NCBI GenBank assembly: GCA_050084515.1
Contig: CM114271.1
Span: 31,372,001-31,436,000, forward strand
Length of the DNA: 64,000 nt
Reading direction: 5' to 3'
DNA from: Blasia pusilla
Taxonomy: Eukaryota
Shown piece after piece: positions 13,761 through 64,000 of this stretch (position 1 is its first letter; each line of letters starts with the position of its first letter). Both the position numbers and the translations under genes were made by a program. A model generated the notes under the pieces. That model searched no databases, was not told the DNA's origin, and was given only the letters and a program-made list of their open reading frames with translations.

Positions 13761-14649
13761 TCATAGCTACGTGGTAGGAAAGTCAAACATGGTGTCATCA
13801 CTACATAGTTGATTGGGCGTGTGTTGGAGTTTTTGGAGTTGCGAGTGGGAGGTGTTCCACAACTCATGATATAGGGACGTGATGCTTGTAGCCTTGATTG
13901 GTGGTGAGATTGTAATCCGTGCTGACATTTGGTGATGGAGTGTTGGTAGTGGAGACATTGGTGTTGATGCCTACGGGTAGTCCGCATATGCTGACTGGAG
14001 GTTTGACGTGTTGTTCAAGGAGGGTGTTGTGTAGCGGAGGTTGCCGCACCACATGGAGGAGTCAGTGTTGATGGTGGAGTAGATTGAGGGCCGGCGTGAT
14101 CAGGTTACCCATAAGGTTTGAGTCCCTTTTCCCACACTTATCTTATGTGATTGAGAGTGTTGAGTATCGAGTAGTTGCTGGTGCTAGAGGGGTTTAGCGA
14201 TGGTGACGAGTTTAGACTCCTTTCATGTGTAGCATGCTCGTGGATATATGATGGTTGTCGAGTAGGGGTTGCGTGTATGACCCGAGAGTGTTAGTAGTTT
14301 AGGTGAGTTAGTTTGGGAGGCTCATGGTGAGCCCCAATGTTGAGTGTGGGTGAGGCCGCGCGTGTCCATACGGGGTTACTATAGCATAAGTGAGCTAGTG
14401 AGGAGTGTGGGAAACTTTTGGTGAGTCTGAGTGTTTGAGCGGGTGAGATTGGGTTATCACAACGGCGTTCTTCCAAGGTTTGGAAGAACGGGGTAGTGCG
14501 AGTAGTGGTGGTGTGACACGGAGTGGAGTGAAATACTGAGGGGTTTCGAGTGAGGAGCCATCTGGACTTCCATCTGTGGCTGGATTGTTATCTCTAGAGA
14601 GCGGGTCTGGTGATGAGATTGCAGACAAAGGCGGTGTGACTTGGCAAGA

Positions 14650-16094
14650 GATGGACAACATGGGCCATCAAGGCAAACGTCATTTCTCGGATGCGATGGG
14701 CATCATCAACTTAGATGACTTCATCATGGAGTTCAACACGTGGTGCGACTTCCAAGAGATACGCACCCCTGTGCGGTTCAACCCTTTTATGGCATGGAAG
14801 GGTTTGTTCCAACACTTGGAGGGTCCTCCAATTTATAATAACATGGAGTTCCGATTGTTATATTTACTAGAGATCAATGCATGGAGGATGTTTTGGGCTT
14901 GAAGGTATGTATCCACTAGTGGTCGCGAAGTGTATGATGGAATAGTGAGGGCGAAGAGGCCTATACCATCAACTCGGGGACTAGATGGAGAGGAAGACAG
15001 TAAGATGGGTGAGATGGGAGAGACCTCTCGTAGTAGAGGGCCATCTAGTTTCAGTCTTACGATGGAGTTCTTCTGACAGTTGGGGAGGAGCTACCAAGGC
15101 ATGTGGACCAACAAGCTAAAGAGTCTACAGGATTTTTTATGACGATCAGGTGAGAGTCTGAGAGAGGCGTTCATGCGCATGCAACAGTTGATCGTTTCCT
15201 GATATGGGGTGATTGAGGCGTAGTCTGTGCAGTATTGGTACAGGGTGTTGGACGAGGAGCTACGGAGGAGAGTTTGGGATGCGATGTTGCTTCACACGGC
15301 ATAGCCCACATTTAAGGTGGTCTTCGAGTTGTTTGAGCGGGTAGAGCTCAACATGAGCGAGGATCAGGTGGTGACCACGGGGTTTTTTCTGGATTCAAAA
15401 ACTAGGAGTAGACCCAAAAGTGCCTTAGCATGCACTAGTACCACGAGAGCGGGCTAGTGGGCCTAGAGAGCAGGACGGTTATCGTGAGCTGATGAGGCAA
15501 CATCCCGTACTAACATATGTTTCCCAGTAGGGACCAGGGTTGGCTTGTTGGACGTGTGGTGGGCCACATAGGGAGAGGGATTGCCCACAGCATGGGCAAG
15601 GGGCACGGGTGCCTCCGATTGCTTAGGAGCCACAGAGGATAGCCCCACCACACTTGTAGTGTGATCATTGTCACCGATATGGTCACACTAGGGATAGGTG
15701 TTATGATCTTTGCCAAGACGTACGTCCAGAGGTAGGCAGAGGACTTGGGGGTGAGAGAATTGGTGGAGATTGAGTAGTGGATGATCGTGGTGGTAGAGTG
15801 CCATCACCGGTCATAGGAGATGGAGGACATGCACCTAATGCAACTCTCCTTACGCGCATCGATCAGTTGGAGCATAGGATTGCTACCATGACGATGATGC
15901 AACTACATGCATGCCCAGAGCTGAGAGTAGCTAGTGTGGCGCCAACCACCATATCTTACCACAATGCTGGTGAAGATTCTACGGGGATGGGATTTATGTG
16001 TAGTGCGGCTCAGGTTGAGGCTTTTGCGGTGGTGACTTGGGGTGGTACCAGAGGTACCAAGCCATTGCGAGGTGTGATTGAGATTGACCCATAA
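14650..16094 (+). pseudogene. Gypsy gag remnant with a CCHC zinc knuckle
   Basis: LDDFIMEFNTWCD...AWKGLFQHLEG capsid-like region; CDHCHRYGHTRDRC encoded at 15660-15701. Confidence 0.75.
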
Positions 16095-16559
16095 GAGGGG
16101 ACCGATGGGCGTCAGACCAGGGTTCCCCAATCGTTCACATTATCGGAAGCACTATATACACCGACGATGGTGCCTCGACAACCGTTAGTACCCACGGGTG
16201 TGGCAGGTGCGTCGACGTCATGAGGAGTTAGAGAGACGACCCCTATGCGGCTTGAGAGGAGCCAGTGTCGACCACGTTGTTGGAGGTGGCCACTAGGGTG
16301 AGCTAGACTCTGTTGTTTTCTGCCATGGAGTTGGCGACATTGGGAGTTGGACCAACGGAGGTGTTCTGGTTGGCTGCCACGTTGTGTAAGCGTAGAGAGG
16401 TAAGTACCTCTCATTCAGAGGTAGTTGATGAGGTGGTGGACCCGTCCTCAAAGCAGATGCTTGGGATGTCCCCCACTAAGTCATGGCATGCGGTGGCGGC
16501 AAAGTTGGTAGATATGCCACCTCGACCGGCCATAGAGCGAGCCATGATCACATCAGGTA

Positions 16560-16963
16560 TGGTGTTTTTGGATAACCGAGCAAGATTTTTTCACTTGGTT
16601 AGTCCCTCATGTATAGTCTACCACCCGGAGCGCATTCTACTTGATTCGAGAGCGTAGCCCTTGATGTTAGGGAGGGCGGCGTGTTTGGAATTGGGATTAC
16701 AGAAAGACGACATCAAGCATTGTCCCTTTCAAATACACACCTCTGTGGGGGGATTATTACCCATGCATTACCTGACTCGACATGAGTTGGTGGTTAGACT
16801 CCAGACAGAGCATGAGTCAAATAGTGCGATGGTGCGTACATGGGGGATTACGACACCGGCAGTGTCGTATGATATGTTGGTAGGGAGTATAGTGTTGTAT
16901 CCCCTTGGGTTCATTCTGGATTTTTGGGAGGAGACGGTTTCTTATCGGCCAGGGTGGCAATGA
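16560..16963 (+). pseudogene. Gypsy aspartic protease remnant
   Basis: ILLDSRA*PLMLG (degenerate D-S-G) followed by SYDMLVGSIVLYPLGFILDF. Confidence 0.75.
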
Positions 16964-17271
16964 GACGATGGACGGGTAATCCATCTACGGGTATTGTTTG
17001 GAGGGAGTAGTGGTGGTCGACCACGTGAGGATATAGTGACCATCTTGGCAGCATTCACAGGTGGTGTTAGCTGATTAGGAGGGTTTGGGGAGAGGAGCAC
17101 ACATGCGGAGGACATTCCCATAGCGGATAGTCTCACGGAGAGACATGTCAGGATGGATGTCTCTTCCCATGGTGCAGAGCTTCGTTATTATTGTTGGGGA
17201 TAAGCGTTGAGATGCGTAGAGTGCAAACAAGCTCGTGAGACAGGCATAGAGCCGTGCCTATGTTTGGAGTA

Positions 17272-17325
17272 GGGTACGAGAGTGTTAGATCTCTTTGGAG
17301 GGATCAACACGACAGGTTGCTGCAT
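17272..17325 (+). pseudogene. C5 cytosine methyltransferase motif I remnant, truncated by the LTR
   Basis: ggt acg aga gtg tta gat ctc ttt gga ggg atc translates to GTRVLDLFGGI, the SAM-binding motif I. It lies ~310 bp downstream of the protease on the same strand. Confidence 0.65.
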
Positions 17326-23127: not shown

Positions 23128-23155
23128 CAATAATAATAATAATAATAATAATAAT
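23128..23155. repeat. (AAT)n microsatellite
   Basis: About 9 AAT units. Confidence 0.95.
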
Positions 23156-23160
23156 AGAGA

Positions 23161-23384: not shown

Positions 23385-23392
23385 TTTTTATT

Positions 23393-24450: not shown

Positions 24451-24639
24451 TTTTAAAAAATGATACTTTTAAATTAAAAAAATATATATAGAAGTTTAAT
24501 TTTTTGGTAGACTTTAAAAAAATTTATTAGAGATCCTTCCTCTCTATTATCCTTCCAATTTCTAACTAACTCTATTTTTTCTTCTTAACACTTTTCTGCG
24601 TTTCCTAGTTATATTCTTTGATCTTTCTCGCCTGTTATG

Positions 24640-41930: not shown

Positions 41931-44900
41931 CTAGTAAGGTGTATGTGCCTATATGCTAGGAAATGAAAAAACGTTTGAAGAATTACTGGATAATTCGTGT
42001 AGGGAAAATATTAATGATGATGTACACAAATTCGGAATTTTTTTTATTGTCCGTAACATGTGAAAAATTTTCTCGTTGCCCAGTTATCATGTGTCAAACT
42101 TAGAAGTGTTTGCAAATCAAGAATACACTCTTCCATGAGCTGCTCGTACGATGCAATGAAAATAAAACATTCTTTGAAAAATTAGTACATAACTCATGGA
42201 GGGAAGCGATTAATGATGTTGTGCATAAATTCAAATATTTTTCTTGTTGCCCGTAGCATGTGAAACATAACATGTGCGGTGTAACAATTTTTGAAATTTT
42301 CTTTTAAGAAAAAAAAATCTCTTCGTCCAACTTATTCACATGTCCTCTATACTTGTTTACCAATTAATTTTCTTCCCCTTTCTCTTTACATTATAGTTGT
42401 GTGACATAGTTTTCTTTTTCCTAGATAGAAAGGGCTAAAAAACAGGTGTTAGAGACAAGAGGATTTTAAAATTATACTAAAATTTTGAAATTGTATTTAA
42501 TTCCAATTTTTCCATTTAATTCCCACCTTTTTAAAATCTTAAAAGAGTAAGACGATTTCACCTATGAATAATACCCATCTCCTCTAAATAATTTCACCCC
42601 TTCATACAAGTTAGAACATTAACTATTCTTCCCCTTCCACTCTTCCTACCAAAATAATATTAAATAATTAAATTCTTAGTTAATTTTAATTAATGAAATA
42701 ATATTTTATTTTTATTCAAATTTATTTTTCTTTCCCAAAATATCACATGTGAATTAACATGATTATTTTACAAATTAGTCACATTATTCATCTCAAATTT
42801 TAAACATAAATTTTATTTTCTAAAATCTTCGAAGAGTAATCATAATAATCTATATTATTATGGGAGAGTGCCTTTTTGATTTGCAAACACCTCTCTGTTT
42901 GACGTGTGACAACTCGGAAGCAAGAAAATGTTTCACATGATACGGGCAGCAAGAAAAAAAATTTATGCGCAACATCATTATTCGCTTCCCTCCATGGGTA
43001 TACACTTATTCTTCAAACAAATTTTTATTTCCCTTTCATCGCACGGGCATCTCATCTATATTATTATGGAAGAGTGTCATAATAATTAACTATTAACATC
43101 TTAACTATTAACTAATCTTCCCCTTCCATTCTTCTTACCAAAATTTAATTGAATTATTTAATTTTTAGTTAATTTTAATTAATGAATTAATTTTTCTTTT
43201 TTACTCAAAAAATTTTCTTCCCCAAAATATCACATGTGAATTAACATTATTAGTTTTAAAAATAAGAAAAATCTTCCTTTCAAATTTTAAATAAAATTTA
43301 TATTTTCTAAAATCTTACCAGAATAATCATTACTTTGCACTCTAATAACATTCCATTCTTCTAAGTAATTACACTCCTCCATTAAAATTTAAATGATCTC
43401 CCAATCCCCTATGCAATTTTACCCTTCCATAAATTTTAAACAAGATCTATTCCTTTTCCATTAAAATTCATTTTCTCTTCCTATTAAATATGAATTAAGA
43501 TATAAATTATAATTTTTGGGTTATCTATATTATTATGGGTACGTGTCTTCTTGATTTGCAAACACCTCTCTGCTTGACACGTGGCAACGAAGCAACAAGA
43601 AATCGTTTCACATGCTACAGGCAACCAAACAAAATTTGAATTTATGTGCATCATCATTAATCTCTTCCCTTCACGGGCTATAACTAGCTCTTCAAACACT
43701 CTTTTATTGCCCGTGCATCGCACATGCATCATATCTATATTATTATGGGAAAGTGCATTTTTTATTTGCAAACACCTCTTTGCTTGACACATGGCAACCA
43801 AGGAGCAAGAAATTGTTTCACATGCTACAGGCAGCCAAAAATAAATTGAATTTATGTGCAACATGATTGATCTTTTCCCTTCACGGCCTGTACACTAGCT
43901 CTTCAAACACTTGCACGGGTACCTTATCTATATTATTATGGGAGAATGCTTTCTTGATTTGCAAAAACCTCTTCGCTTGACACGTGGCAACTAAGCAGCA
44001 AATAAATGTTTCACATGCTATGTGCTGCAAGAAAACAATTGGAACTTATATGAAGCATCATTAATCTCTTCCTTTCACAAGCTATACACTAGCTCTTTCA
44101 CGGGCTATACACTAGCTCTTTCATGGGCTATACACTAGCTCTTCAAACACTCTTTTAATTCCTATGCATTGCACGGATACCTTAGCTATATTATTATGGG
44201 AGAGTGCCTTCTTGATTTGTAAACACTTCTATGCTTGACACATGACAACTGGGCAGCAAGAAAATGTTTCACAAGCTACGAGCGGCAAGAAACAAATTTG
44301 AATTTATGTGGAATATCATTAATCTCTTCCCTTCATCAGATGTACACTAGCTCTTCAAACACTTTTTTATTTCCCGTGCATCTTACTAGTTTATCATAAT
44401 AACTCCATCCTATTTATATTTAGGATCACCCATTATAATATTAATTAAATCATTGATTGATTAAAAAACCTTTTTCTATTTCGCCCAAATCACTATCCTT
44501 TCTCTCTATACATCTATCTCTATCCATCTAAAATGACTCAAACAACAAAATTAATACATGTTGCCTATTTTATCTTGTTATCTCACTATCTTATCGTATT
44601 ATACTTGTAGCGTCGTCCATTATAATATAAACAGATAAATAGATAGGATAGTCAAAAGAAAAGGTCATCTCAAAATGAAATCATCTTTATTTTTAGCAAA
44701 TAGAGTATATGGTTCTTGTCGAATAGTTGGAATTCAATTGTACTCCGAGGATAGGTGATTCAAAATTATACATTTGTGCCTAATACGAGTATGAGCTAGT
44801 TTAATTTAATTCTCTCCTCTTAACTATGACAAATTTTAGGGATTCTCCATATCCATCTTCTCTTTAAAGGTAATACTAGTTGTATGCTTGTGCTTACGCA

Positions 44901-45480
44901 TGAAAAATATTTTTTTATAATTCAAAAATATTTTTTATTCCAACATTCAAGTACAACTTTCAATTTTTAAAATCTTAAAAAAATAAAATTATTTAAATTT
45001 TAAATAATATCCAATCTCCCTAAATAAATTCACTCCTCCATAAAAGTTTGAACAACACATACTCTTCCCCTTCCATTCTTCCCACCAAAATAATCTCCAC
45101 AAATTAAATTATTCGTTAATTTTTTAATGAAAATATTTTATTTTTCCATTAAAATTAATTTTCCTTCCCAAAATATCAAATGTGGGTTACTTTTATTATT
45201 TTAAAAAATAATCATATTCTATATTTGAAAATTTAAAAGTAACTTTTTTTTAAATCTTATAAGAGTAATAACATTCCATTCTTCTAGATAATTCCACTCT
45301 TCAATTAAAATTTAAATGATATCCCAATCCCCTAAATAATTCCATCCTTCAATAAAATTTAAACAATATATGCTCCATCTCCCTTAAAATTTATTTTTCC
45401 CTCCCATCAAATATGAATTAAGGAAGAAATTTGTAATTTTTTTGTTATTTTTTCTATTTATCCCACCTTAATATCATCTA
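41931..45480. mobile_element. Cluster of non-autonomous Helitron fragments in both orientations
   Basis: CTAG 3' ends at 41931 (-), 44386 (+) and ~44877 (-); repeated TCTATATTATTATGGGAGAGTG 5' ends (~42850, ~43055, 43524 onward); AT-rich family shared with 1250-1900. Confidence 0.8.
43524..44389 (+). repeat. Head-to-tail array of four ~210-bp mini-Helitron units
   Basis: Units start at 43524, 43734, 43927 and ~44185, each with a cccgtgcatcgcacggg-type hairpin. Only the last ends in CTAG|T. Confidence 0.88.
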
Positions 45481-45941
45481 GCATAGTGACTACATCACAG
45501 GCAAAGCGATACAACATACAACGTAAGCCTGCATGAACTACTACTAAGTTTGGATTAACTGTACCGTCAATGTTACGAAGGTTACACATGGCAAAACCTC
45601 ACGCACTCTCAAAATGGTGCACCCTACAGTCGCATCCAACGTCATGGGTGTCGTCTGCTGCAAGTAGACATAGTCTCCCTGATGAAACCTTCGGATGGTA
45701 AGTCGATAACCACCTCCGCAAATAGTCTCATACCTCAACGCATCCCGATATTGCGCAATTGCTAAGTTCTCAAACGCCATGGACATCACTCTCCAAAATA
45801 ACTGGATTCTCTAAGAACATGCTCACATCCATACATCAAGATCATCAAGGTTCAACACCTCACCAGTATCTCGACGAATGGCCACTTGTAAATGTGGTTG
45901 TCGGTCGCAAAGAAACAAATATATTGAGAAAGATGTGGTCG

Positions 45942-47213
45942 TGTCGAGAGCCTTTCTTTCAGTAAGGGTGGACCAGCTAGTTGCGGCAAACGTGGTTGAT
46001 GCAAAGTGAATTCTATAAGAATTTCTCCTTTCTCAGTACAGAATTATTATATAAACCCTCCATTATCTCACGATAGGAATCACGAATGGTAGTGACGATC
46101 ACTTCTTCATAACATTGAATCCCAAACTTCCGAACTATGAAGTCCTTGTAAAGTACTTTACACTGGTACACAAGAAAAATAGCACAACTAGTGTTAAATC
46201 CTACTCGAGCAGGTTTGTTACCATCCATGGATCGCTATATAAGAACATATAACGTACAATCCCATGTTCTCCCATACGTGATAATAGGAAGAATGATCGG
46301 AGTTGAAGATTGCATGACTTGGTTCATAAATGCCTCCCCAAAGTGATAAACTAGGTAGCAAGTAAACCAATGTCTATCTACAAAGAGAACCTTCACGTAG
46401 TACGGGTTAAGGAAAGGAAAATCATGTACAACTCCTGCTCCATCCCTATCCATACTTCATGGACATTCTCTATCCTCCTCAAGAATGGGTTTTGGCGGAG
46501 TTGCTCTCCCAAGAAGCGTAATTCACTTTCATTGGGAAGATAACAAGTCAAAATCATCCACTATCTCTAGTATGACTAAAATTCCCTAAGATGATAAGTC
46601 TCTCATCTCCACACATACCACATTCTAGAAAACCTCTCGAAGAATAGACCATGATCAAGTTACTCTCCCAAGAAAGGTAATCCACTCTCATTGGAAGAGC
46701 AAGCAAGCCCAACGCCATCCACTCAAGAGTGACGCGAGAGCTCAAGAAATGAAGTAGAAGGTGGTAAACCCTTGAAGGTCCCTCCTCTTTATATACTCAC
46801 AAGGGATCGACAACAGTACGAAATAGGGCTAATCTTATCTTGTGCCACATGGCCTCCTCTCAAGGCTTAGCCAATCACATTTTGACACAAGTAGATTATC
46901 TCTTATCTATTCCAAAATATCCTCCTTTACTCACTTCATATCTTCCAAACTACTCCAACTACCCTAGCAACCAACCAAGACTACTTTTGCTTTTGTTTCA
47001 TTAATACACCAACCCCATTACTTTACTTTTATAATCCCGTGTCTCATTTATTACCTCTTTTCCTAAAGTTGGGCCCCCATAAAAGAGGCACCATAAAGAG
47101 ATTTAAACATGAATATTTTGTTTTCCTAAGCTAATTAACTTAATACTAATAAAACTCTCTCTAACGATTAATGAGAGAGGAATTTATATAGTGGGTGATT
47201 TTACTAAACGACA
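45942..47213 (-). mobile_element. ~1.27-kb solo-LTR-like insertion inside the Gypsy integrase
   Basis: TGTCG...CGACA termini and a TATATAAA box (~46790). The integrase frame resumes on both sides (RKASL | SFSIYLFL). A homologous copy starts at 63629. No clean TSD was seen. Confidence 0.65.
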
Positions 47214-50200
47214 ACGGTAAGGAGGCCTTCCTGTTGAATCTGTATCCCATCGCCAACCACGGAAACCCGAGCTCTTAATCTCCTAAGTGACCTCTTTGTA
47301 AGCCATACTTGCGTAAACCTCTCTTCACCGTCTGCATAACCCTCATCGCTTGTCCATCCGCCTCAAGATGATCTCGAAAAATGGTGCGGTGGTCGATCAA
47401 CGCCTGCTCATACAAGCCTTGAAACTCCTCGTGAAAGTTCGTACCCTAGTATTTCAACATCTCATCTAGTGCACCATAATGACTCAACACTCTATCTAGG
47501 AAGGCAAACTGTGAGAAAACATAAAGTGACAAAATCACTTAAATCTATTACAGAATTTGGAGAAACAAAATGGCTAGATTCTATGAGCGTGCTCTCACAA
47601 AAGAGCTTTGATGGAACCTGAACATAAAGATAACTTAACATACAAGAATACATTGCTGTTGCGGCTCTCGACTATTTCACTACTCATAAAACTCAGGTTT
47701 TTTACATGTTTTTTTTTTCTATTAATAGATTTTTTTATCGAGGGTTGCGACTTCGGACCCCCGCGTCACATCAAGGTGTCCTGCACCCCGATGCAATATA
47801 GGGTTAGATAATCCTAGTAACGCTACTCCATAAACCACCTACGTCATATTACTATGAATCCTCCGACGTCTAAGTTGGAACCATAATTCTAGGCTTCTCC
47901 TCATAGAAGGGGGTCGATCAAATTAATGATGCTTAGAGAAGTGGATGTTGAGAATCCAACATATACGCTACTCCCTCACTCGCTTTGTCATGCAATGCAA
48001 CCAACTCTATCCACTTCGAGAAGTGTTTAACCATCACCAACACATAACCACTATGGCGCTTTGTCAAGCGTAAGGTCCTGCTAAAACCAAACTCTATCTA
48101 TAGCCTAAACCTATGATCGAAAGTGGATGCAACTGTGGAGTCGGAGCATTGAACGATATCCGGACCCGATCACACACCATACACTTAGCAACAAACTACA
48201 AAATGTCAATGTGCATGGCTCGCCATCAATATTGTATCTAGAGCAAGTTGTCCATCCGCTTCACTAAAAAATGGCCCAACTCCTCATACCAAACGTACTC
48301 TCACTGAAGGATGAGGCACTACACGTACTTTACCATCCTCCCAAACTCGCAGCAATGTGTCCTCTCCCACCGGAACCGTTTGGCTCGTTGTAGGATCCGA
48401 TCCCGCTCTTTAGCACCCAATGTGCTCGCGACGCTGTGAGTACCCAGTCACTCCAAGACTACTCCATCCTCGTGAATATCTTGTTGTCTTCTCACCGGCC
48501 TCTAGATCTAAGGACTCTCCATCAGACCTCGCCATCAAAATCTCAACCCTCTGGCTCTCAAGAGCTAACAAGCCCAAATAGGCTGATGCGTGTTATCTTG
48601 GCACTCACTTCTCATCACTCTCTCGATGCCGTCGAGCTCAAGTTTCATCTCGTTGACTTGGGCCTGGGTTACGGCTCAAACCATCTACATCTTGGTTGAG
48701 CGTTCAAGGTCTATGTACTACCTGGAAGTCATACTTTTGCAACAACAGAGCCCACCTCGCAAGCTTCCTTGTAAGATTATTGGACTCCATCAACCACTTA
48801 AGTGATTGATGATCATAAAGGATGGTAAAGGGGTTGCTAAATAAGTAACATCGCAAATGCGCGAGAGCCCACACTGCAACCAAACACTCACCCTTATACA
48901 ACCTATACTTCGCCTCTACAACGTTGTTTGAGCGACTAGCACAAGCCACCACGAACTCTCTATCCTCATCGTCATGTTTGGTGAGCACCACTCCAAGCCC
49001 CAACATGCTCCAATCTGTATGCAACTGGAAAGGACTCGCCCTGATCAGTCTCCTCAATATGGGCACGGACGTCGATCTATCCTTAAGCAGTTGAAATGCT
49101 CTGTCGTGCTCATCCCCCCAGTGCCACTTGTGATCCACCTTTGCAATCAAACTAAAACCCTTCTCATACCATTGATAGAAGTTCACCTACCCTATAAATA
49201 CACGAACTCGACTCACATATACATCTTTAAGGCGTGGAATACGTGAAATAGCCTCTATCTTTGTCTGCTGCACACCAGGGCCACCTAGGTATATTGTGTG
49301 ACCCAAGTACTCAATCTGGTCGTACAAGCACTTGCACTTGTCTGGATGTAGCTTTAGCCCATCTTACTGTAATCGTCAAAATACCTCTCCAAATGTCGCT
49401 CATGCTTCTCAACCATGGCGCTATAAACTACGATGTCATTAATATAACACCTAACAAAATCCAAACCTGCCAAAATCCTATCCATGATCCTCTAAAACTC
49501 TGCCGAAGCATTCTTTAACCCAAATGGAAAGAACCGCCAGTGGTACAAACGATCCTTCTTGTGAGGATCGATGCCCCAAAATGTCATCTACTTTTTGTCT
49601 TCCAATGTGATAGGCAACTAATGGTATCCGGCTCGAAGATCTAATGAACTAAAGACCTTTGCATGCCCAATAGCATCAAAAATCTCGTCAGATGTGGGCA
49701 TGGTATACCTATCAAACTTCGTCTACTGATTGATAGGCCGGAAATCTCCACACATCCGCCTATCCATCCAATTTCCTTGCACATCCTTCTTGGAGGGCAT
49801 GATATTGGCAAATGCATACTCACTACACGACATCTCCACTAGCCCTGCTCCAACTAAGTCATGGCTCTTACTCTAAATCAGAGCCCTCTCCATATCACTA
49901 TACCTATATGGTCATTGAAAGATTGGTGTGTTGCTATACAACTCAATGCGGATCCATGGACCCTTTTGCGTACCCAAATCATGCATACTAAATGCAAAAT
50001 AACTCATGTAACTCATAAGGAACTGATGTATCCAACGTCGTTCTCCTCCAATCAACTTAGGGCCCATATCTAGCTCCCAAGTCTCCATCGTGACAATAGT
50101 AGGGCTCTCAAGCGTGTGTATCAATGGTTGCTATGATGCAACCCCATCTTGGACAATATAACTCAATTGCTCCCCTTCATCCAACTGCAAACTCTCATCT

Positions 50201-50440
50201 CCTCCATGTGTAGTATCCGAAACCACGCTCGATGTTATGGTTGTTATCTCTCAACGTACCTGCAAAACATCCCAATAAGTCCAAGGATGTCTCTCTCGAT
50301 CACCCCTAGCATGTCGATCTCCTCGGGTCCCGCCCCTAGCCACTACCTCAACCGTCTCGATAGGCATGGGGCTCACCAAGACAACACTTGTATGTAACAT
50401 GTCGCAACCCCATCCGATGCTGCTCAGCTACTCCTAAGTT

Positions 50441-50655
50441 GATTATCCATATCAAGCAATTTGGGTCCATCGCCTGACCTCAGCCATGACGTTGTGATAC
50501 CTCAACTAGTGACGGTACTATCGTCACTCCTATGGGAAATCCCATCGCTCGCTCTTGCTCATCAACATTGGGCTTCACCACCCACTGCAGCTGATTATCC
50601 CAAACCAAGCCAAGCACGGCTTCCTTGTATGCATAGGAAGTAGAAAACTCAATAT
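50441..50655 (-). pseudogene. DNMT3-like C5 methyltransferase C-terminus (motifs IX-X) directly upstream of the Gypsy RT
   Basis: Minus-strand translation TSYAYKEAVLGLVWDNQLQWVVKPNVDEQERAMGFPIGVTIVPSLVEVSQRHG*GQAMDPNCLIWI matches the DNMT3 pattern E.ER.FGFP..YT....S...R..LLG.SW. Confidence 0.8.
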
Positions 50656-53600
50656 CTTGCTCTTGTCTGCTCTAATTGAGAGGTGTTGGTACCAACATCA
50701 AAGAAGCATAGTTGGTAGCGTTTGGATCCATTGCATTGTCCATGCTACACGTACTGCAGGCCTACAAATTGTCAATAGGATCATATCAACCTCTTTCACG
50801 AGACGACCCTAGTGTAGTCCTGGGGTGAGTTCTCCCACGTTGCCCCTTGCTCTCCATCGTAGTAGTTCATCCATTTCTTTTTGTCGTCTTGCCATGATGG
50901 ATTCATATGCCCTCCTCCATTGCTCCGTATGGTCTACCATTATAGCTCATTGTCTTATGTGGAGCTCATGTCTGGCAATTGATCCATTCACGATCCTCTC
51001 CATCTCTCTCTTTAGTCTCTCGTGCTCCTCACATAATTCTTGGTGTTTCCCCTTCAAAGCTGAGATATAACCTCGATATATCTCGTCTATCACCTAAGAA
51101 TAGCGCCGCTATCTAGAAGGCGATCAAAAATCTCTCTAGGCCCATCAAATCTCATATTACCACCTACAATATTGAGGTCATTCAAAATACCTCTTAGGTC
51201 CTCAAAAGTCTCCTCCTCCAACTGAACTCGCCCTTCATTTTCATTTTCGTGATGTATCTCCTCTTGAGTTCGCGAATTTCTTCATTGCCCATCCAAATAA
51301 GATAGTAGGCCTCTAAGGCTTCTTGACAATCCACCACGCTGGTCTTGGCCAAATGACTCGTTTTGGTAAAAGTGCTCCTTGCTATCCTCCATCGGGCCGA
51401 GAAGATAATGGTTGATGTTCATATCGTGGGTATAGGCCTATATTTCCAATTTTGGTGGACTATGAATCCATAGTCTTTTTTATTCCATTGGTGGGGATAT
51501 TTCATCTTGTGCACTCGGTCTCTTATCTCTTCTCAAATACCTATCCTCCACATCACTATAATGAACCTCCATGCCCTTTCATCAACTTGAGGACTTTGAG
51601 CTTGACAAATACCTTGCTCACTAACTTGTGTTTTCTTGTTCACCTTCGTGGACGTTGGCCATCTCAATGTATTGTGGGATTCTTCCATTCTTTCTTCACC
51701 CTTTGCGTCAAGAGGACTATAGTCTTCATGAGGAAATAACTTCATCTCCAACTTGTCTTCTACCAAATTCCGAAAAAAAAAGGTTGTTACAAACAAAATT
51801 CAATAGTAGTGACATAATGACACATAATACATCCATGGAGCATACATCTATGATCATTTACAATCATTCAGAGTCACACATTCATATTTTTCAATCATTT
51901 CTTATATTTCTCGTGAAAAATATACAATCCTCAAAAAAATTACAATCACACTATGTTCCTTAATCATCACTCAACGAGCACATTGAGATGGTCTAAATCC
52001 GGAATCTATATCGTCTAAACCTTTTTTTTTGCATTTGCTCTCATTTATGCAATAAGATAGTCTAGGCTTTTATAATCAGAGAGGTTCAGAGCTAATGCCT
52101 ACTTTTGAGCCCTTTTCAAAGAATTCCATTTAACATTCGCGTAGGCATCCCTCAAAGTAAGGTTGTATCTTACATAATTCATTTTTTCACAATCATTCAT
52201 AGGGCATAGATTTGTGTGGCTATGCTAAAAGGAAGATTCTTAGGCCCTACTGTTAACTCCGATGCTATATACCCAACATGCTTGTTTTGTTCATGGGGCC
52301 ACCATCTCTGAGCCAAGACTAAGCACTCATCCTCCCATAAAGCATTTCCCCAATCTCTAACCCTGATGTATGGCTCAAAGTTGGATCCAAAATGGTGAAA
52401 AAGCATGAAGGTTGGTATGAAAAACTCCATGCTTGTGGGTTGTCTTGTTAGTAACTTACAAGGAAACCACATGCTAGATCACATTTGATGCCATTGCGAG
52501 ACATCTAATTTTGTGCAACTCTCCTAAGATTTCCCCTATGTTCTTCAAGGTATGGCATGCTTACATGGCATTTCCAAGATACCAAATATTTCATGAATAG
52601 ATGGTACGCGGTACGTGGATTCTTGATCTATCTTCCCACCATGGGAACCATCCCTTGATGTAAAATAGTTGTAAATATCTCCTCACGCATCATTGATTGT
52701 CTTGAATACAACTAAGATGCTTCCTTGAACACCTTCATGCAATAGTAAACATCGTCACTAAAGCCAAGGGTTTTGTTTATTTTACACTGATACACAATTC
52801 TGTGTAAACATGACCCCAGACAAAGTATCCTCAAGATCATGTCCTACTTTTATATCTTTGAAAAAATCCACATACATCCAAGTGGAACGACCAATGTCTT
52901 CCCTACGAGAGAATTAACACCCTTTAAAATAAGTTGAGTATTTTTTAAATCTACACTAAATCTCTCTAGTAGGGTTGTCTCTACAATGATCAGCTTCTCC
53001 TTCTCGTATGTCTTGAGATCGACATACACTCTCTCCAAGTTAACACCTTGTTGGACACAAAATGCACTTAACCTCTTGGCCTCTTTGACATCGACTTCCT
53101 AGTTCCATCCCTTCTAAACTCTCATAGAAAATCTATGGAATTCCAAGGAGTAGTCTTGGAAACCGTCTATATCCCTCAAAATGTAGGATCGTCTCTTCTC
53201 TAATGTAAGTTGGAAAAACCAATCTAGCCATGCCTCTTTCATACCCATGTTAAAGTCATTCCTAGAATTGACTCTTTGCCCCTTGGCACCATCACTACAC
53301 TCCATTCAATTATCTTCTACTCTCGATGATTGAGCCATACTAAACATGTAGCTCAGAGGAATAAGATAGGAAGATTTCCTCCTAAACCAACGAAAGAAAT
53401 CTAAAGGTGGAGATTATGAAGTATCAAAAGTTTTAGAACTTATGATGTTATAAAAATGGCTTGTTCAATGTATATAAGTGTGAATGATGAAATAAGGGAT
53501 TTAGGTTTAGGGTTTAGCACTTAAAGGGAATACATGATCGCTCAATTAAGTTTTCTTGATCACCTCCACATCCTTGATGTGTTAAGGAAAGGCAATGAAA

Positions 53601-53989
53601 AAAAATATAAACTCAAGACCGTTAACCAAAAATCTCAAAATTACCAAAAAAGTTCAATGACACAAGAGAATTCCACACTCATAGCCTCTCACCTAATGTG
53701 GAATAAATTAGAGTTGGTTTAAGACACAACACGCTCAAGGAGTGTAAATATCCAAGTTGGTCACCGAAAATCTAACTATCCCCAAAGGCATGCAACGGAT
53801 ATCCCCACAATTCCTAGCAACCTTGAAAGTCCTTAACTCTCAAGGCAACAATGAAATTTGGGACCTAATCCAAAACTAATCCTACTCTCAAAAGAAAATG
53901 AGTAAAGATATGGAAAATAGAGAGAAAATGTTAGTAACTTAGTCCCTAATCACCCACTTATGATCGGTTTAGGCCCCAATTGTAGACCC

Positions 53990-54390
53990 TTTGGTGACAC
54001 TCGATCCAGGTTGTTTTGGGAGATGATGAGGATTTTCCAACACTTGCAAGAGTATCAATCCCGTTCTGGAGCATACACTCTAGAGATTATGCCTATTTTG
54101 GGCGATTGGCGGTCCCTTGTGGTGATGAGTGCACGTCAGCTATGCGCATGGATTGGCCCGACAATGTTTTTGGATGCGGCGAGTGTAGGTTCACAAGCAC
54201 ATTGGCTGCATCTATGGTGGACCAACTTTGTGCCACATAAGATGTTGCGGAGGCATATGCTCGAGTGGAGCGCCCCTCCCATTTTTTGTGGATTCCATTC
54301 TCGATCCGAGTCGATCACATGCAATGAGGCATGATGATCAACCGCCGTTGATTATGGTCAACAAGGTTGGCTTGCCATCGGCAACCTTTG
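53990..54390 (+). pseudogene. DNMT3-like C5 methyltransferase central fragment (post-motif IV, VI, VIII)
   Basis: GDTRSRLFWEMMRIFQHL ... YTLEIM (decayed ENV) ... IGPTMFLDAASVGSQAHWLHLWWTN, comparable to DNMT3 GRLFFEFYRLL ... FENV ... [21 protein letters not shown]. Confidence 0.8.
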
Positions 54391-55262
54391 GAGGACGACT
54401 ATAAAATAGCCATGTGGCGAGCTAGGATTTTAGGATTGGACGTACACAGACTTGACGCGGGCCTTGAACCTCCGCGCATGCTAGGCACGAGCCTCTTGTG
54501 GGCTTGTCGTGATTAATCGGGATCATCCGGCATGCAAGTCATGTTTGGGCCCAACTTGTCCACGATGCAAGAGCCAACATGCTCGACATGGGCTAGAAAT
54601 CAGGCAACAAATTGGGCATCGGGTTTTTGGAAAGAGATGGGGGGCTACCCGAGCAAGGGCGTAATGTTTGGTTGGCGTAGGATCACATGCGGACCGCGGG
54701 TACCCGGGCCCAATCCCCCTCAAACATGTTCGCGGACACAAACATTGTCCGTATATAACCTTGATTGGAAGATATGGTGGACCTCCATCACCATATCCTA
54801 GTGAGGCATGGCCTCCTAGTGGGATATAAATGGAATCCCACACGCGGTGGGTGGTTCTCCTTTGGACCATCGCCTCAAGGCAATGGTTCTTGGCCTTATC
54901 CAGTGGGAGAAAAACATAAGTGGGCCTCTAGTAGTGTCTCCTCACAATCCCTATGGGCTTCCTTTGTAAGTATCTCATGTGGACGTATTTATGAGATTCT
55001 ATTGGAGAAATAAGAACGACTTGGAAAATATATTATGGTGATGGAAAGCTTTCATTATTCAACTATCCATTACATCGTGAACTAGTTTGTAAATTATATA
55101 TGAACAGGGTGGATGAATAGAAGGACAAGATACATTTCATATAGGTCAAACCTCTTGTCATTATAAAGTTGGGGATGAGGTACCTCCGAGTGCAAATTAG
55201 TCTTGTCCATCACCATGCATAACTTAGAGTCTGAAAGATGGGGTACTACCTGTTGGTAACAA

Positions 55263-55403
<141 letters not shown>

Positions 55404-55655
55404 AGAAGAACGAGCAAAAGTATCTCCCTGTATAAATTTGTGAACCAAAATCAACTAATCTATCTAAGATTTGAGCATGTACACAATCAAGATGTTAATT
55501 TATGTCACTATTTTCTAATCAGAGCTTCACCATGATATGACTTCACTTATTATCAAAAATTACACATATTTCATTATTTATTTATTTCCAAGCAAAGATA
55601 AATTTTGGTTCAATTCACTTCAAAATTTTGGAAGCTCCTTCAACACTAGTACAAA

Positions 55656-55830
55656 TCTATATTATTTATTGGAGGGTACCTTCTTGATTTTCAAGCACAT
55701 GTATGCTTGACATGTGGCAATTGGGCAATAAGAAAATATTTCTCAAACTACGTGCAATAATCAAAATAATAATAGTTTGTTTCATGAATAAGTCCCTTCA
55801 CTCATGTGCATGGCACGCGTTGTATACTAG
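55656..55830 (+). mobile_element. Mini-Helitron copy
   Basis: A|TCTATATTATT...atgtgcatggcacgcg hairpin...CTAG|T, homologous to the 43524 unit. Confidence 0.75.
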
Positions 55831-57119
55831 TTTGCATTAAAAAAGTGTACCAGCTTGCAGATTTCCTTGCACTTAACTAAAACTAGCATTTAGCATATAC
55901 ACAACGAGGATGTCTATTTCTAACTCTTTTGACTAATCAAGTACAAAGAATGAGTTCACTGAGGTTTTATAATTTGCATGGATATCCACAAAGAGAGGGG
56001 AGTCAATAAATCTCCTATTGTGTTAGCGCATGTAAAGGGGTTTTCCTTTTTGTATTCCTATTGTAAGTATTTGGTAGAAAGATTAAGTAATACTTGTCTC
56101 TTTCAATGTTGTGGATGTATGAGCTAAATTGCATTGTATATTTGGTTGCAAAATGAATCACTTGCAATGTATCTCCTCTGTAGCTGCGGTGGTAGTGGAC
56201 ATAGAGATCTTGCAAAAGATCAAGAATAAGAGGAAGTCGATTAGTGAGGTGAGTTATTCCCTTGCCATGCCTTCGACCGTGAACTATAAAGTGTAGGCCC
56301 CATCTCTTACAATCCATGTCTGTGGACATGTCGAAACTTGTCCGTCCATGTTTGTCCCAGGGACAAACTTGTCAATTTGTTTTTGCAACTGTGAGTTTCA
56401 GGTTTGAGCGGTCGAGGCAAGTTTCATGGGAAAGAGATTGCTCTTGGGATAGTAAGGGTGGACCTTAGGGATACCATCCATCATGAGTACCAATTATGGG
56501 AGCCAAATACAAATGATGATCCTCCCCACTACACTTTTCGAGATGCAGATGGATTTGCGATCATTTGGCGAGAGTTGAACTTAAAGAAAGTAGTTCATTA
56601 GTGCATATTTTACATTCAATAACTTTTGTCTTCTTGTTGTTCTCCATGTTTGCCAAACTTCAACTTATGAAATGTTCTAAAACTCTTGTTTGATTAGGAA
56701 GCAAATGTTATGAATTTTTCTTCTTGTCTCTATAAATACATTCATATGTTTTTTTGAATTGTTCTCCAATATTGACCAAAGTAGCCATATCCCAAAAATG
56801 GGCTTGAGTGCAAGTTACATGTTCGAGTAGATATGAGAACCTAATGCCTTACACTTCAAAGTGCATTTCACCTTAGTGTGAGCTTTTCTCCTAATGTTTT
56901 GTGATTTATTTGGATGGAGAGTATGAATTAATGAATGTACTCTTAAAGAAAAAAATGTACGTAACTCTTTAAGTCATTCAAAGCATTATTCAAGTTAGCT
57001 ATCCTACCACCTCAGTTATTCTCACGACCATGAGAGTCAAATATCGTATGCATGTAGTTGCGAATTTCAACTCTTATGACCATATATATGACTATCCAAT
57101 GAGATCTATATAAGTGTAT

Positions 57120-57310
57120 GATTGAAGCAGTCATATTCATGTCCATGACTACGAAAGTTACGGAAATGATTGACAGAGTTATGCACATGATTGACAGAGG
57201 TATACTTGTGACTACTAGAGTCATGCATATGACTAATATAGTTATGCATATGACTACCATAATTATGCATATAACTAAAAGAGTTATACGTATGACTTTA
57301 CAACTTACGA
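57120..57310. repeat. Degenerate 21-bp minisatellite
   Basis: Variants of gagttatgcatatgactac repeated about 9 times. Confidence 0.7.
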
Positions 57311-59699
57311 ATATAATCAGCTAGAAACAAATATTAGAAAAGTACACTTTTGGAATAATTCCTCGTCTGCACATATGAATTAGTCATTTACTCCACGTGG
57401 TATATAGTAATTTGAAAAATCCACTTGGAAATTTGTAGGTTTTCATGAGAATTCTCGTAATCATATGACATAGAATATAGGATAGAGTCATTTAATCCAA
57501 ATGAAAAATATGCATGGAGTCATGTGTAGGTTGTCACGTCTTTTAGGATAGATCGGCGAGATCTAGTAGAGTGCCTTCAGAGATACTGGAGGGCAGCCTC
57601 TGGAGGTTGAGGATGACTTGCTCACGCCATGGGTAACTTGAGAGAGTCCGTTTCACCTTCGTTTCGGCTCATTTGGAGCCATATATAGAAACTCATTATT
57701 TTAGGCAAGTTGCCATTTAGATTATAATTGACTGTCTACTTTGGGAAGTGAGCCAAGGAGGTGACCTGCGAGCATAGATTACCAATGAGAGAGCTTGGGA
57801 GAGGGAAGGGGGTATACCTCCAAGAGAGAGAGTTTGAGAGTTCATTCTCTTTTTGTTGAACCTCTTGGCATGAGGCAGTAGAGCTATGGTCCTTCTTTCC
57901 TTGTGTGTGTAACCCAAGCCTCTCACTAGGAGAGTGGGTTTGGTTTGACATGAGAGAGAGTGCACACCAAGGAGATCTTGGTGTGAGATGTTGAGAGAGA
58001 TATGATCGATTTTCCGAAGAGAGAATGAGAGAGCTTCAATGGAGGAGCTCGCTGGTCACTCGCTATTTTCGCAGGTTGGGGACTATGTTCCCTATTCAGC
58101 GGCTCATGGGAGTGCTCATCGGAGCAAGAGCTGCTTGATTTTTCTGCTTTCTTTGCCATTTTTTCGTACAAGAAAGTGGAGCGCGGAAGCGTTGCCCAAT
58201 TTGTGTTAGAAATTGAGTATGGGGGCGGTTTGCCCCATGCTAGTGCTCTCGAGGATACCTTGTAGCTTGCTTGTTCATGTGTTTATAGGTTTGAAGTTTT
58301 TTTTTGGAGAAATCAACGCGGAAGCGGTGCCAAATTTTTCGTAGGAGTGCAGATTGAAGGGATGCATGACAGTCCCTATCACTTTCTATTGGAAGGTTGA
58401 ATGGAGAAACCAATTTGAGGAGGTCGTGTATTGGAAAGCTGTGTACGTTGTGGAAGAAAGGATGCAAATTAAATTTTTTGAGCAGGAAATTACGATTATT
58501 TTTGTGTGGCTGCCATAACCACCATTCCAAGGTGTGAGTGAAATTTCCAAAATCCTTGGGTAGAAATCTTTTTGAGGGGTAGAAAAGTAAAAAAAAATTA
58601 TGATTGAGTGGATAGGACAAGGAAAAATGTGTTTGGGAGTAGAAGTTGAGTGAATTTTTTTTTCTTGGGGGAGTTGATCCACCACTTGTGGAGTTAGTGG
58701 GCAAATGTCGGTGTAGATCCGGATTTTAGGGGGATGTTTTAGTAAAATCCCACCAAAAAAAAACCAAATGGGGGACGGACGTCCGCCATCTGCCAGAGTA
58801 CGGGGTCACTACGTGGCGCCACGTCCCGGTGCCGTCCGCGCTCTGACCACGTCGCGGGACTGCCCCATTGCGCCATTGGCCTTTCCCGTGAGCCTGTAGT
58901 TTGTAGTCGGCCGCTGGTTGATGCAGTTCCCGTCGCTGAACTTTGGGTCCAATTGCCCTTGCCGCGACACCAACCTGATTTTCCGCCAAATCTTCGCCCA
59001 ATGTTGCTGCCAGCCCTGCCAACTCCCGCCGTCAGCGCTCCCGCGGCCGCCTGGTCTGGCCGCATTACCAGCGCGGAGCCTTTTGTAGGCTGCCGCCGAC
59101 TCCTCTTGCGTCGTTGCTGCAGGCCCTGCATCGCCGCGACTACTGTAGTTGCCACGCCTTGGGCGCCGCTTGACCGTTTCCTGCCTCTTACTTGTTGCGT
59201 TAGCCTCACGATAGTCCGAGAGATCATAGGTGTTATTGCTGCCTCGTGGGCCGTGTCTGAGTGACGGCTCGTAATCGGGATCGTCTCTAGTAATGCCCGT
59301 GCTAAAACTTGCCGGCGGCGGCACTACTCACGGTCGGCACCAGATATCCGAAGATGGATATCCCATTTTATGTGGATGGCAGGGTCTCATACACATGTAA
59401 ATGGCATGCGGATGGTGAGTGCATGCCATCGCACCGTGTCAGATTTGAAATTCAAATGTAGTACGCTATAAATCAGCAGCAAGACTGGGCTGGGCAAATC
59501 TCATTCCAGCCTTCCACGCTGGAAACCATGTGAGGGAGTGATGTTGCAACGGTGGCGCATTGGAGAGGTAGTGACCCCGCCTGCCCTAAGGGATTTTGTC
59601 TGCAATTCTTTCGTTGAGGCCTGAGGGAGCTTGTTTGCAATTCATTTGTCGTCATGTTGCCTCAACCTGCTCCGTATTTGCTTTTTCAATCTACTTTGG

Positions 59700-62460: not shown

Positions 62461-63628
62461 TTACTTTCGTTGTAAGCTGAGTTTTTTCATCACGGGAAGT
62501 TCAAGAGCCACTGTATAGGATCTCACCTTATGTTATCTGTTGAGTTGTTTGGGTTGGGTGTGGATGCCAAAAGTGACCATGTTGCGGGAGGTGTGCTTTT
62601 TGATCTATCGGAATTTGGGGCTATCATAATGCTTTCGATTTCATGAGAGAGGATTGTCTGAATGGTAGATTCTTATGCGTATTAAGCTATAATGTGTGAT
62701 GTTTGAATAAAATGATCTATATATATGTAACGTACAATTGAGTGAATATTGTAAATGTTATATATCATTTTTTATGAGAAGGCAAAGCCACTTTGGAAAG
62801 AATGTGTTGACAAACACATTCGTCCGGTATGATCAAGCAGGTTGAGATATATTATCTCAAATACTAGATTTTACTTGATATGTTCTCATAAGAAAGAGAA
62901 GCACTCACAAAAAATACAATGTCCGTGAATGAGGAGATAGCCCTCATATGACGACCATATGAGAAGGTTATTTTGAGTGAACAATCACTTAGATAGATGG
63001 AATGTATTCCTTGTGATGATGTAGATACTATTGAGGCAAATGTAATTTATTAGAAGTGGACTAGTTTATAATCAAACCATTTTCTATACACCACCAGTGT
63101 TGTTGATGAAGTCAAAATTGATCATCCTATTATTTGTTCTCTTGATAATTGCTTCAAATACATTCTAGACCTTGAAACTTGCTTTAACTGAGTAGTGGTG
63201 ATATTTTAACTTGTGTTGTTTATGTTGTGAATGAAGGGTACGTACTGAAGGCGTATGGCTCCAAGTGAATCAGTTGAAAAAAGTTTGGCTACAAAGTCCC
63301 CCTAGTCAGAATTAGAAGAGCTAGTATAGAGGAAGAGATAGAGCTAGAAAAAATTGAGGAAGTGGAATAAGAGTTAAAACAATTTGCAGAGGAAGTTGCC
63401 AAGTTCTACATCGAATGTGCAATTGATGAGGAAGAGGAGAAAGAGAGGCTAAAGCTCTAGCATGGTTTATGGAAAATCAGTGGGAAGAACAACTTTCCAG
63501 ATACAAGAAGAAAATTGACGAGGAGGAGGAAAGGTGGCGGAATATTAAGGTTTGGTCGCCAAAATGAGGCATATTACAAGCAATTGTAGATTTTTTTCAG
63601 TGTAGTCTAGCAGAATGATGTAGTACGT

Positions 63629-64000
63629 TGTCGTATAGTAAAATCAACCAGTGTGTAAACTCCTTCGTCATTAAGTGTTAGATAGAGTTTCATTAGTATT
63701 AAGTAAATTGGCTTAGAAAAAGGAGATTCTTATGTTTAAACCTCTTTATGGTGCCTCTTTTATGCGGGCCCAACTTTAGGAAAAGGAGGTAATAAATAAA
63801 AGATGACTTTATAAAAGTAAAGTAGTTGCTTTAATGAAAAGCAAAAGTAGTCTTGGTTGGTGGCTAGGTTAGTTGGGGTAATTTGGAAAATATCATGTGG
63901 ATAAAAGAGGATATTTTGGAAGAGATAAGAGGAAATCTACTTGTGTCAAAATGTGATTGGCTAAGCCTTGAGAGGAAGCCATGTGACACAAGATAAGATA
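63629..64000 (+). mobile_element. Start of a second copy of the LTR-like repeat found at 45942-47213, in the opposite orientation and cut by the window end
   Basis: 63629-64000 aligns with the reverse complement of ~46833-47213 (tgtcgt.tagtaaaatca, ggtgcctcttttatg, cttgtgtcaaaatgtgattggctaagccttgagagga). Confidence 0.8.

Follow-up and report, generated by a model that had tools for sequence, protein, structure and literature searches.

A 64,000-nucleotide stretch of Blasia pusilla DNA (assembly GCA_050084515.1, contig CM114271.1, forward-strand positions 31,372,001 to 31,436,000; hereafter the window, with positions counted from its first letter) raises the question of whether a Ty3/Gypsy retrotransposon has taken a cytosine methyltransferase (methylase) of the DNMT3 type into its pol gene, upstream of the reverse transcriptase (RT). 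A preliminary description made from the letters alone had placed the tail of such an enzyme at 50441-50655. The flagged sequence is very probably the decayed C-terminal end of a DNMT3-like C5 methyltransferase that is integral to the pol of a Ty3/Gypsy family with the order gag(CCHC)-protease (PR)-DNMT-RT-RNase H (RH)-integrase (INT), and the window copy is an old, dead insertion.

The flagged fragment and its place in a Gypsy element

The window was searched in six frames with a profile of 29 polyproteins of the same layout (1729 positions; the family profile) and a methylase-only profile (439 positions), alongside Pfam and tblastn with database relatives, given here by P numbers. The minus-strand features were as follows:

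50393..50653, minus strand: C-terminal methylase piece with motifs IX and X, the flagged piece (reading, tblastn, and profiles; matched at 50647-50369 (50647-50393), family profile 1197-1281, methylase-only profile 318-402)
50263..50397, minus strand: weak match, in a different frame, to the tail and linker that follow the methylase (region of the HPW..W motif; a second tblastn piece, linked to the main one, to P0009 residues 452-492 at 25.8 bits)
50025-48674, minus strand: RT and RNase H together (family profile 1314-1679; methylase-only profile none)
49357..50079, minus strand: reverse transcriptase (RVT_1, E 8.3e-13; P0038 residues 696-897, 52%; family profile 1314-1501, E 5.1e-43)
48674..49378, minus strand: RNase H of the RT-RNaseH type (E 3.8e-27; profile 1496-1679, E 4.5e-29)
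48160..48486, minus strand: start of the integrase, H2C2 zinc domain (E 6.3e-5; P0038 residues 1144-1187, E 6.8e-10)

Translation of the minus strand of 50671..50431 gave ...IEFSTSYAYKEAVLGLVWDNQLQWVVKPNVDEQERAMGFPIGVTIVPSLVEVSQRHG[TGA]GQAMDPNCLIWIINLG, the frame quoted in the preliminary description, with its one in-frame TGA at 50482-50480. The piece corresponds to the last two motifs of the full-length set (ERERAMGFP..T and GQAMDLN), in line with the earlier assignment to C5-methyltransferase motifs IX-X, and residues 1124-1204 of Marchantia P0025 aligned to it in tblastn (52%). The stop codon in frame, together with the lack of any Pfam match and of any PDB match at E<=10 for the 80-residue fragment alone, could suggest a chance motif resemblance in a non-coding frame, but this explanation is refuted and its probability is negligible: a search of 5.8 billion proteins returned six matches at E<=0.01 among 32 candidates (best E 7.5e-19) with 51-58% identity across 74-93% of the query, identity to P0009 was 58% over 81 residues, and a domain profile of 177 related methylase domains matched 50647-50393 on the minus strand (E 1.1e-21, profile positions 318-402). 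A by-eye alignment extending the flagged piece upstream beyond 50653 was discarded (best profile match -2.4 bits, matched by 26 of 300 shuffles).

The family to which the fragment belongs passed the Pfam methylase model PF00145 (curated cut-off 22 bits) in two of four 90% cluster mates of the fragment's matches, P0022 (455 aa, 54.6 bits) and P0019 (352 aa, 56.7 bits), with E values of 1.5e-14 and 3.5e-15; P0009 fell under the cut-off with 20.1 bits and P0013 had no match. Four of five further relatives also passed (P0075 at 46.1 bits, P0095, P0268, and P0059). A DNA_methylase match was thus absent for the fragment itself and present for its homologous family. The cluster mates showed the full linear motif set of FGGIG, PCQ, ENV, an Arg-x-Arg block followed by WWTNL, ERERAMGFP..T, and GQAMDLN. 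Residues C167, Q168, E210, R252, N257, T314, and G353 were invariant in a 42-sequence family alignment, with N211, R250, and others conserved at >=90%. Across 177 whole-domain copies the conserved blocks were motifs I, IV, VI, VIII, IX, and X, and the catalytic Cys-Gln, the Glu-Asn of ENV, and the RxR arginines were retained despite the divergence of these domains.

By sequence comparison, the family is a C5 methyltransferase nearest to DNMT3 among the solved enzymes, as the preliminary description had proposed. Against all PDB sequences, P0022 matched DNMT3A (5.4e-14), DNMT3B (9e-12), DNMT3C (5.5e-11), and M.HhaI (7e-8), and more weakly tobacco DRM (1.8e-7), Arabidopsis DRM2 (1.3e-5), and DNMT2 (0.13); DNMT1 was not among its PDB matches at E<=1. 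The profile of 42 family members gave DNMT3A 3.9e-26, DNMT3C 3.4e-23, and DNMT3B 1.9e-22 compared to 5.8e-15 for tobacco DRM, 4.2e-10 for Arabidopsis DRM2, and 2.3e-9 for M.HhaI. An AlphaFold model on the 42-member alignment (mean pLDDT 84, pTM 0.82) retrieved DNMT3A/B/C catalytic domains at all of ranks 1-50 in a Foldseek search of PDB (best E 1.3e-19), the best match having a TM of 0.81 normalised to the target and about 22% identity. The motif order is linear, with one continuous DNMT3A alignment running through motifs I-VIII and then IX-X, and a protein atlas look-up placed the family nearest a streptophyte PF00145 cluster. From its conserved residues and DNMT3-like model, the family methylase looks catalytically competent.

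Several points weigh against the reading as a DNMT3-like methylase. Apart from the blank Pfam and PDB searches, none of the six closest database matches (0/6; best 12.5 bits) reached the PF00145 cut-off, so that the methylase assignment of the window fragment rests on transitive homology. The DNMT3 label is a ranking by similarity combined with a published analysis of the Klebsormidium elements, and the tree presented below is of element-borne domains only. The PDB used for the class ranking holds no DNMT4, and a 2026 preprint, in the text available, puts some other green-algal transposon methylases beside DNMT4 (bioRxiv 10.64898/2026.05.21.726589).

The claim that the methylase lies upstream of Gypsy RT, RNase H, and integrase on the same strand was borne out. 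Pfam found RVT_1 (about 49749-49357, E 8.3e-13), RT_RNaseH (about 49120-48731, E 3.8e-27), and Integrase_H2C2 (about 48279-48160, E 6.3e-5, under the 25.5-bit cut-off) downstream of the flagged piece, which is the Ty3/Gypsy pol order on one strand, and in tblastn the homology to polyproteins ran from the methylase tail into the RT. The RNase H region includes one 160-aa open stretch (48704-49186); the integrase core domain was not scored in the window and element homology ends near 47.9 kb.

The layout gag-PR-DNMT-RT-RH-INT, which the preliminary description had assembled from scattered pieces, was found intact in P0075 and in part in other relatives. Longer relatives of P0022 numbered 25 at E<=1e-3 among 8000 scored candidates, 19 of them with a precomputed PF00145 match and 8 named Marchantia polymorpha. 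Domain positions (in residues) and contents were as follows:

P0075, 2188 aa, intact: zf-CCHC 530-547, Asp_protease_2 796-888, DNA_methylase 978-1226, RVT_1 1421-1575, RT_RNaseH 1664-1766, Integrase_H2C2 1895-1949, rve 1967-2061
P0038, Marchantia: DNMT 460-529, RVT_1 833-919, RNase H 974-1098
P0027: protease 685-726, then DNMT 918-1060
P0035, Marchantia: one open frame running from gag through PR and DNMT to the start of RT
Metagenome contig L001, 3.6 kb: one frame, interrupted by a few stops, that takes in the end of PR, the whole methylase, RT, and RNase H

Contig L001 was one of two loci that passed among 42 stretches fitting a pattern in a metagenome scan; the other, L002, is a contig with a 1738-aa multi-methyltransferase adjoining a D5-type primase and is unrelated to the family. 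Plant DNMT3 has a C-terminal DUF3444; Pfam on the relatives scanned found no accessory reader domains (PWWP, ADD, DUF3444).

Non-angiosperm plants retain host DNMT3 genes, according to the accessible text of PMC6453930, and the fragment alone has no Pfam match, as would be expected if it came from a host gene (DNMT3 or DRM), or from an unrelated element, and lay beside an ordinary Gypsy RT. This origin is very improbable because the relatives, the RT kinship, and the motif order all speak against it. The sequences most like the fragment lie in frame within polyproteins, after a protease and ahead of an RT, polyprotein homology continues on the same strand from the methylase tail into the RT, and the motif order is linear, unlike that of DRM. 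The window RT and RNase H are closest to the methylase-bearing Marchantia P0038 (56% and 62% identity, next best 40-42%), and every one of the closest relatives of the RT has the methylase ahead of it, which speaks against the possibility that other copies of this RT family lack the segment. The gag and PR pieces of the window are likewise closest to Marchantia proteins. The flagged fragment is, on this evidence, part of the Gypsy element.

Pieces, probable rearrangement, and decay of the window copy

The remaining features of the family in the window were:

14639..17158, plus strand: gag, CCHC region, and protease of a family member, either a separate copy or a piece of the flagged one moved out of place (family profile 60-878; methylase-only profile none; P0025 residues 1-805, 38-48%; profile E 5.5e-36, 1.6e-19, and 8.6e-58)
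17273..17311, plus strand: possible motif I remnant (G..VLDLFGGI.T), weak, collinear with gag-PR (69% over 13 aa, with tblastn E 0.018 when a 1.1-kb section was searched; in neither profile search)
53990..54389, plus strand: central methylase part, from after motif IV through VI and VIII and the following loop (profile 175-272, E 7.2e-26; 277-311, E 4.8e-4; matched at 53993-54383 (53990-54386), family profile 1058-1189, methylase-only profile 175-311)
50654..54389, no strand: probable 3.7-kb inverted segment (inferred from complementary profile positions)

Beyond four pieces (gag-PR, central methylase, flagged methylase, and RT-RNase H), neither the family nor the methylase profile matched anything further in the window. 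Pfam gave nothing relevant in the three plus-strand frames of 50600-58000 and left the central methylase piece undetected. The preliminary description had joined the flagged piece to a central fragment at 54 kb and a motif I remnant at 17.3 kb. The former is real but lies on the plus strand and is not collinear with the flagged piece; the latter is a weak match that neither profile found and that belongs to the plus-strand gag-PR piece. That gag-PR piece lies on the opposite strand at a distance of 33 kb and its tie to the flagged copy is unproven, a further point against the composite reading of the window. A second weak motif I candidate (50712-50807, plus strand, tblastn E 0.36) was also found by neither profile, and three collinear weak tblastn matches (E 0.24-3) on the minus strand at 54.5-55.5 kb, which hinted at a third copy, were confirmed by neither profile and were taken as chance.

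The central methylase piece lies 3.3 kb from the flagged piece and in the opposite orientation. Its match ends at profile position 311 and that of the flagged piece begins at 318, with no overlap and a gap of at most 6 positions, and the corresponding ends on the family profile (1189 and 1197 of 1729) are likewise non-overlapping. Because the two pieces abut in this way, they are probably one minus-strand copy split by an inversion of about 3.7 kb (about 50654-54389), with one breakpoint placed within the methylase domain (profile 311-318) and the other in unrelated AT-rich sequence. The alternative of two independent family copies inserted head to head is unlikely. It would account for the contrast in summed contig depth (runs X1 and X3) between the methylase pieces, at about 560-2400, and much of the intervening sequence, at about 0-76, for the lack of element homology in that intervening sequence, and for the third family piece at 14.6-17.3 kb, and NAMDPNATN, a short stretch upstream of the flagged piece, bears a faint likeness to a second motif X. 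This resemblance is not significant, however, as 26 of 300 shuffles scored as high, and independent truncations would coincide in such abutting, non-overlapping ends in roughly 1 of 100 cases by a rough estimate.

Public contigs bear on the inversion. An exact 333-base contig of run X1, which may be the assembly's own sample, covers the left junction (50526-50858), and one X1 contig links 50640 to 54357 on opposite strands, the appearance expected of an un-rearranged copy or an un-inverted allele. The right junction is spanned by no listed contig with at least 31 letters on both sides, which tells against the inversion; the part at 54416-54562, which has no contig cover, is uninformative. Upstream of 53995, 18-20 contigs in each of X1 and X3 show a different, mutually consistent continuation; the window departs there from the same-organism copies, indicating a further break or insertion. 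The pieces at 14.6-17.3 kb, 54 kb, and 50.6-47.9 kb may be a single element shattered by two nested inversions: their family-profile coordinates do not overlap (60-878, 1058-1189, and 1197-1679), but the inverted pair of long terminal repeats (LTRs) that this history predicts was absent between 12.2-14.7 kb and 44.5-48.4 kb.

The copy has decayed throughout. At least 11 in-frame stops were counted (1 in the methylase piece, 6 in the RT frame, and 4 in RNase H, one of these at its first residue), and at least 3 frame changes are required between 50653 and 48355. In the central piece the ENV of motif VI reads L-E-I-M-P with loss of the Asn, both arginines of the RxR block are replaced, and the motif IV region of the copy is garbled or deleted. 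As a decayed pseudogene, the locus cannot itself methylate anything. Neither a direct repeat pair (LTRs) nor a primer-binding site nor a target-site duplication was found for the window copy, which counts against its reading as a retrotransposon insertion, although the absence of an LTR pair is expected of a rearranged and truncated copy. The observed/expected CpG ratio was 0.64-0.75 in the family pieces compared to 0.64 for the whole window, and thus without any special composition signal. Four short contigs of run X4 (RNA by guess) fell on the two methylase pieces with 90-99% likeness and are no evidence on expression.

Other sequence features adjoin these pieces. The sense strand of the family pieces is G-rich and C-poor (G 0.32/C 0.19 in gag-PR, 14639-17158 plus strand; G 0.29/C 0.17 in the RT piece, 48355-50653 minus strand), which explains strong blocks of opposite-sign GC skew at 12-18 kb and 42-54 kb. 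An inverted repeat pair at 46832-47216 and 63626-63999, 84% identical over 386 bp and with its second arm reaching the window edge, brackets the rearranged element region; it is the only repeat pair near the copy and may be an LTR, a TIR, or another kind of repeat. A direct repeat at 6347-6726 and 17334-17687 is 80% identical over 380 bp with its copies 11 kb apart; the second begins 23 bp after the possible motif I remnant, where Gypsy-family homology stops, suggesting that another element inserted or recombined there.

The wider family and the proposed role of its methylase

When P0022 was compared exhaustively with 1.84 billion representative proteins, 4821 of them matched at E<=1e-3; the count was 821 for E<=1e-10 and 246 for E<=1e-30, and many among the top 150 measure 1000-3456 aa. 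Layouts were assigned to 327 collected domain-bearing proteins by local searches with PR, RT, and integrase pieces, M denoting the methylase. A first layout, with the methylase between PR and RT, was present in 83/327 proteins and a second, with the methylase between RNase H and integrase, in 101/327. The classes comprised methylase only (143), PR-M (73), PR-M-RT (4), M-RT (3), PR-M-RT-IN (3), RT-M-IN (61), M-IN (23), and RT-M (17). In the second layout, RT-RH-DNMT-INT, the integrase is often followed by a PHD finger (P0044, P0062, and P0072; E 2.2e-13, 2e-10, and 6.1e-8), at the site where chromoviruses carry a chromodomain.

A FastTree phylogeny was built from 135 rows, namely the 2 window pieces and the 133 full domains, out of 177, that stayed under 70% identity to every row already kept. 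All 75 second-layout rows (12 of them provisionally assigned) and 21 methylase-only rows formed one clade with 97% local support, and 25 of the 27 first-layout rows fell on the other side of the tree; by this sequence tree, the two domain orders separate cleanly. Both window pieces were placed in a 98%-supported set of 16 rows (12 of type A, 2 methylase-only, and the 2 window pieces) that takes in Marchantia, Calypogeia, P0009, P0024, and P0264. Their long terminal branches (0.94 and 0.78) are expected of decayed copies. The eight Marchantia rows differ by branch lengths of 0.003-0.07, suggesting recent amplification in Marchantia. Named sources of relatives were Marchantia polymorpha, Calypogeia fissa, Sphagnum troendelagicum, three Closterium strains, and Cymbomonas tetramitiformis. 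Protein P0269, labelled as from a cyanobacterial metagenome-assembled genome, nests among the plant element methylases in the tree and therefore probably comes from a mis-binned eukaryotic contig. As for the window's organism, the summed depth of X1 contigs at >=90% identity was 1014 and 1700 over the two methylase pieces compared to about 2-76 over much of the intervening sequence, a rough sign that the family is apparently highly repeated there.

In intact members the family domain lies in frame between PR and RT. The methylase would be made as part of Gag-Pol, carried in the particle or the pre-integration complex, and either kept fused ahead of the RT or freed by the protease. It may then transfer methyl groups from S-adenosylmethionine to cytosines in freshly made element DNA or around the integration site (cf. 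PMC5890265). Candidate benefits to the element would be to mimic host gene-body methylation, to steer silencing, or to mark copies. Self-methylation of retrotranscribed DNA was proposed by de Mendoza et al. (2018; PMC5890265), whose accessible text also reports that Symbiodinium DIRS enzymes gave CG methylation in yeast. A result in the same text that speaks against such activity is that the Klebsormidium Gypsy methylase had none in yeast, an outcome its authors call inconclusive.

A broader proposal is tentative and rather doubtful as a whole: that there is a recently active land-plant Ty3/Gypsy lineage with a catalytically intact DNMT3-like enzyme between PR and RT, that it is part of a larger green-lineage radiation in which the layouts PR-DNMT-RT and RT-RH-DNMT-INT-PHD derive from one ancient capture, and that the enzyme methylates the element's own new DNA. 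Recent activity in land plants is proposed because Marchantia polymorpha has long open frames with near-identical methylase domains.

Neighbouring features, known systems, and meaning

The rest of the window holds host and mobile-element sequence:

32522-39316, plus strand: uninterrupted 2264-aa open frame, nearly all sperm-tail PG-rich (SHIPPO) repeats (PF07004, E 4.8e-211)
10642-12165, plus strand: pair of adjoining open frames, the first carrying a zf-C17orf113 finger (E 1.5e-10), putatively transposase-like
18017-18427, plus strand: RVT_1 fragment (E 1.3e-9)
24034-24468, minus strand: PIF1 helicase fragment (E 2e-7), perhaps of Helitron type
25115-26272, plus strand: 385-aa open frame without Pfam match, counted as mobile-element debris
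42500-45500, 1200-1700, 23150-23390; 59700-62450; 55246-55400: sites of dispersed and tandem repeats of 160-490 bp (70-95% identity) and a long (GA)n microsatellite

No part of the window is richer in GC (0.53-0.54) than the SHIPPO open frame, which has internal 555-bp DNA repeats. The frame is probably a flagellar gene of the host, and the host therefore likely makes flagellated cells.

A Gypsy element with a Dnmt3-type methylase in Pol was described in 2018 in the charophyte Klebsormidium nitens (de Mendoza et al., 2018; PMC5890265), and the preliminary statement that retrotransposon-encoded DNMTs occur in dinoflagellates and charophyte algae agrees with the text available of that paper. By its published description rather than by sequence, KnitGypsy-Dnmt3 is like the window family in having a non-rearranged Dnmt3-type domain within the Gypsy Pol polyprotein of a streptophyte, and in having intron-less copies that keep the key catalytic residues. 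It is described as having DIRS-like repeats, whereas no terminal repeats could be defined for the window element. No K. nitens sequence was among the named relatives found; these are instead liverworts (Marchantia, Calypogeia), a moss (Sphagnum), and Closterium, and Marchantia is absent from the accessible text of PMC5890265. Other retrotransposons with a captured C5 methylase are SymbioDIRS-Dnmt3 and SymbioLINE-Dnmt of dinoflagellates and EpiLTR of Cymbomonas and Euglena, whose backbones (DIRS, LINE, and chromovirus) differ from that of the window family. The preprint text available reports that the EpiLTR methylases occupy the 3' end of pol, are accompanied by an adenine methylase and a chromodomain, and are sister to DNMT4 (bioRxiv 10.64898/2026.05.21.726589), whereas in the Cymbomonas relative P0110 the methylase precedes the integrase and Pfam found no adenine methylase.

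Among host enzymes, DNMT3 (animal DNMT3A/B/C) is the best match of the family in sequence and fold, sharing the linear order I-IV-VI-VIII-IX-X and a short target-recognition region between VIII and IX. The family differs from it in being fused in frame to protease and RT, in having no reader domains by Pfam, and in its structural-alignment identity to DNMT3A of only about 22%. Plant DRM is the second-best class of solved relatives, with a circularly permuted motif order that the family does not share.

The element kind is already published for a streptophyte alga and the window locus is a further, dead example. Later papers mention "streptophytes (Gypsy-DNMT3)" and, in the text available, leave land plants unnamed. 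In the accessible full text of the literature, no description was found of a land-plant Gypsy methylase, of the PR-DNMT-RT order, or of the second layout, and no paper names the Marchantia methylase-element loci; supplements may list land-plant copies. The available text of one Marchantia methylation paper gives five host DNA methyltransferases, DNMT3 not among them, and another names a host MpDNMT3b; these open frames are mentioned in neither. The presence of the element in land plants (Marchantia, Calypogeia, and Sphagnum) and the layout RT-RH-DNMT-INT-PHD thus seem undescribed, and the size of the radiation and its two-layout structure are possibly so.

Transposons are usually targets of DNA methylation, and one that brings its own de novo methyltransferase reverses that picture; published cases of transposon-borne methyltransferases are few. 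For annotators, PF00145 matches in bryophytes may be transposon rather than host genes. Elements in the genetically tractable liverwort Marchantia offer a practical route to distinguish marking of their own DNA from perturbation of the host methylome and, if an active land-plant lineage exists, Marchantia would make the function of transposon-borne methylases directly testable.

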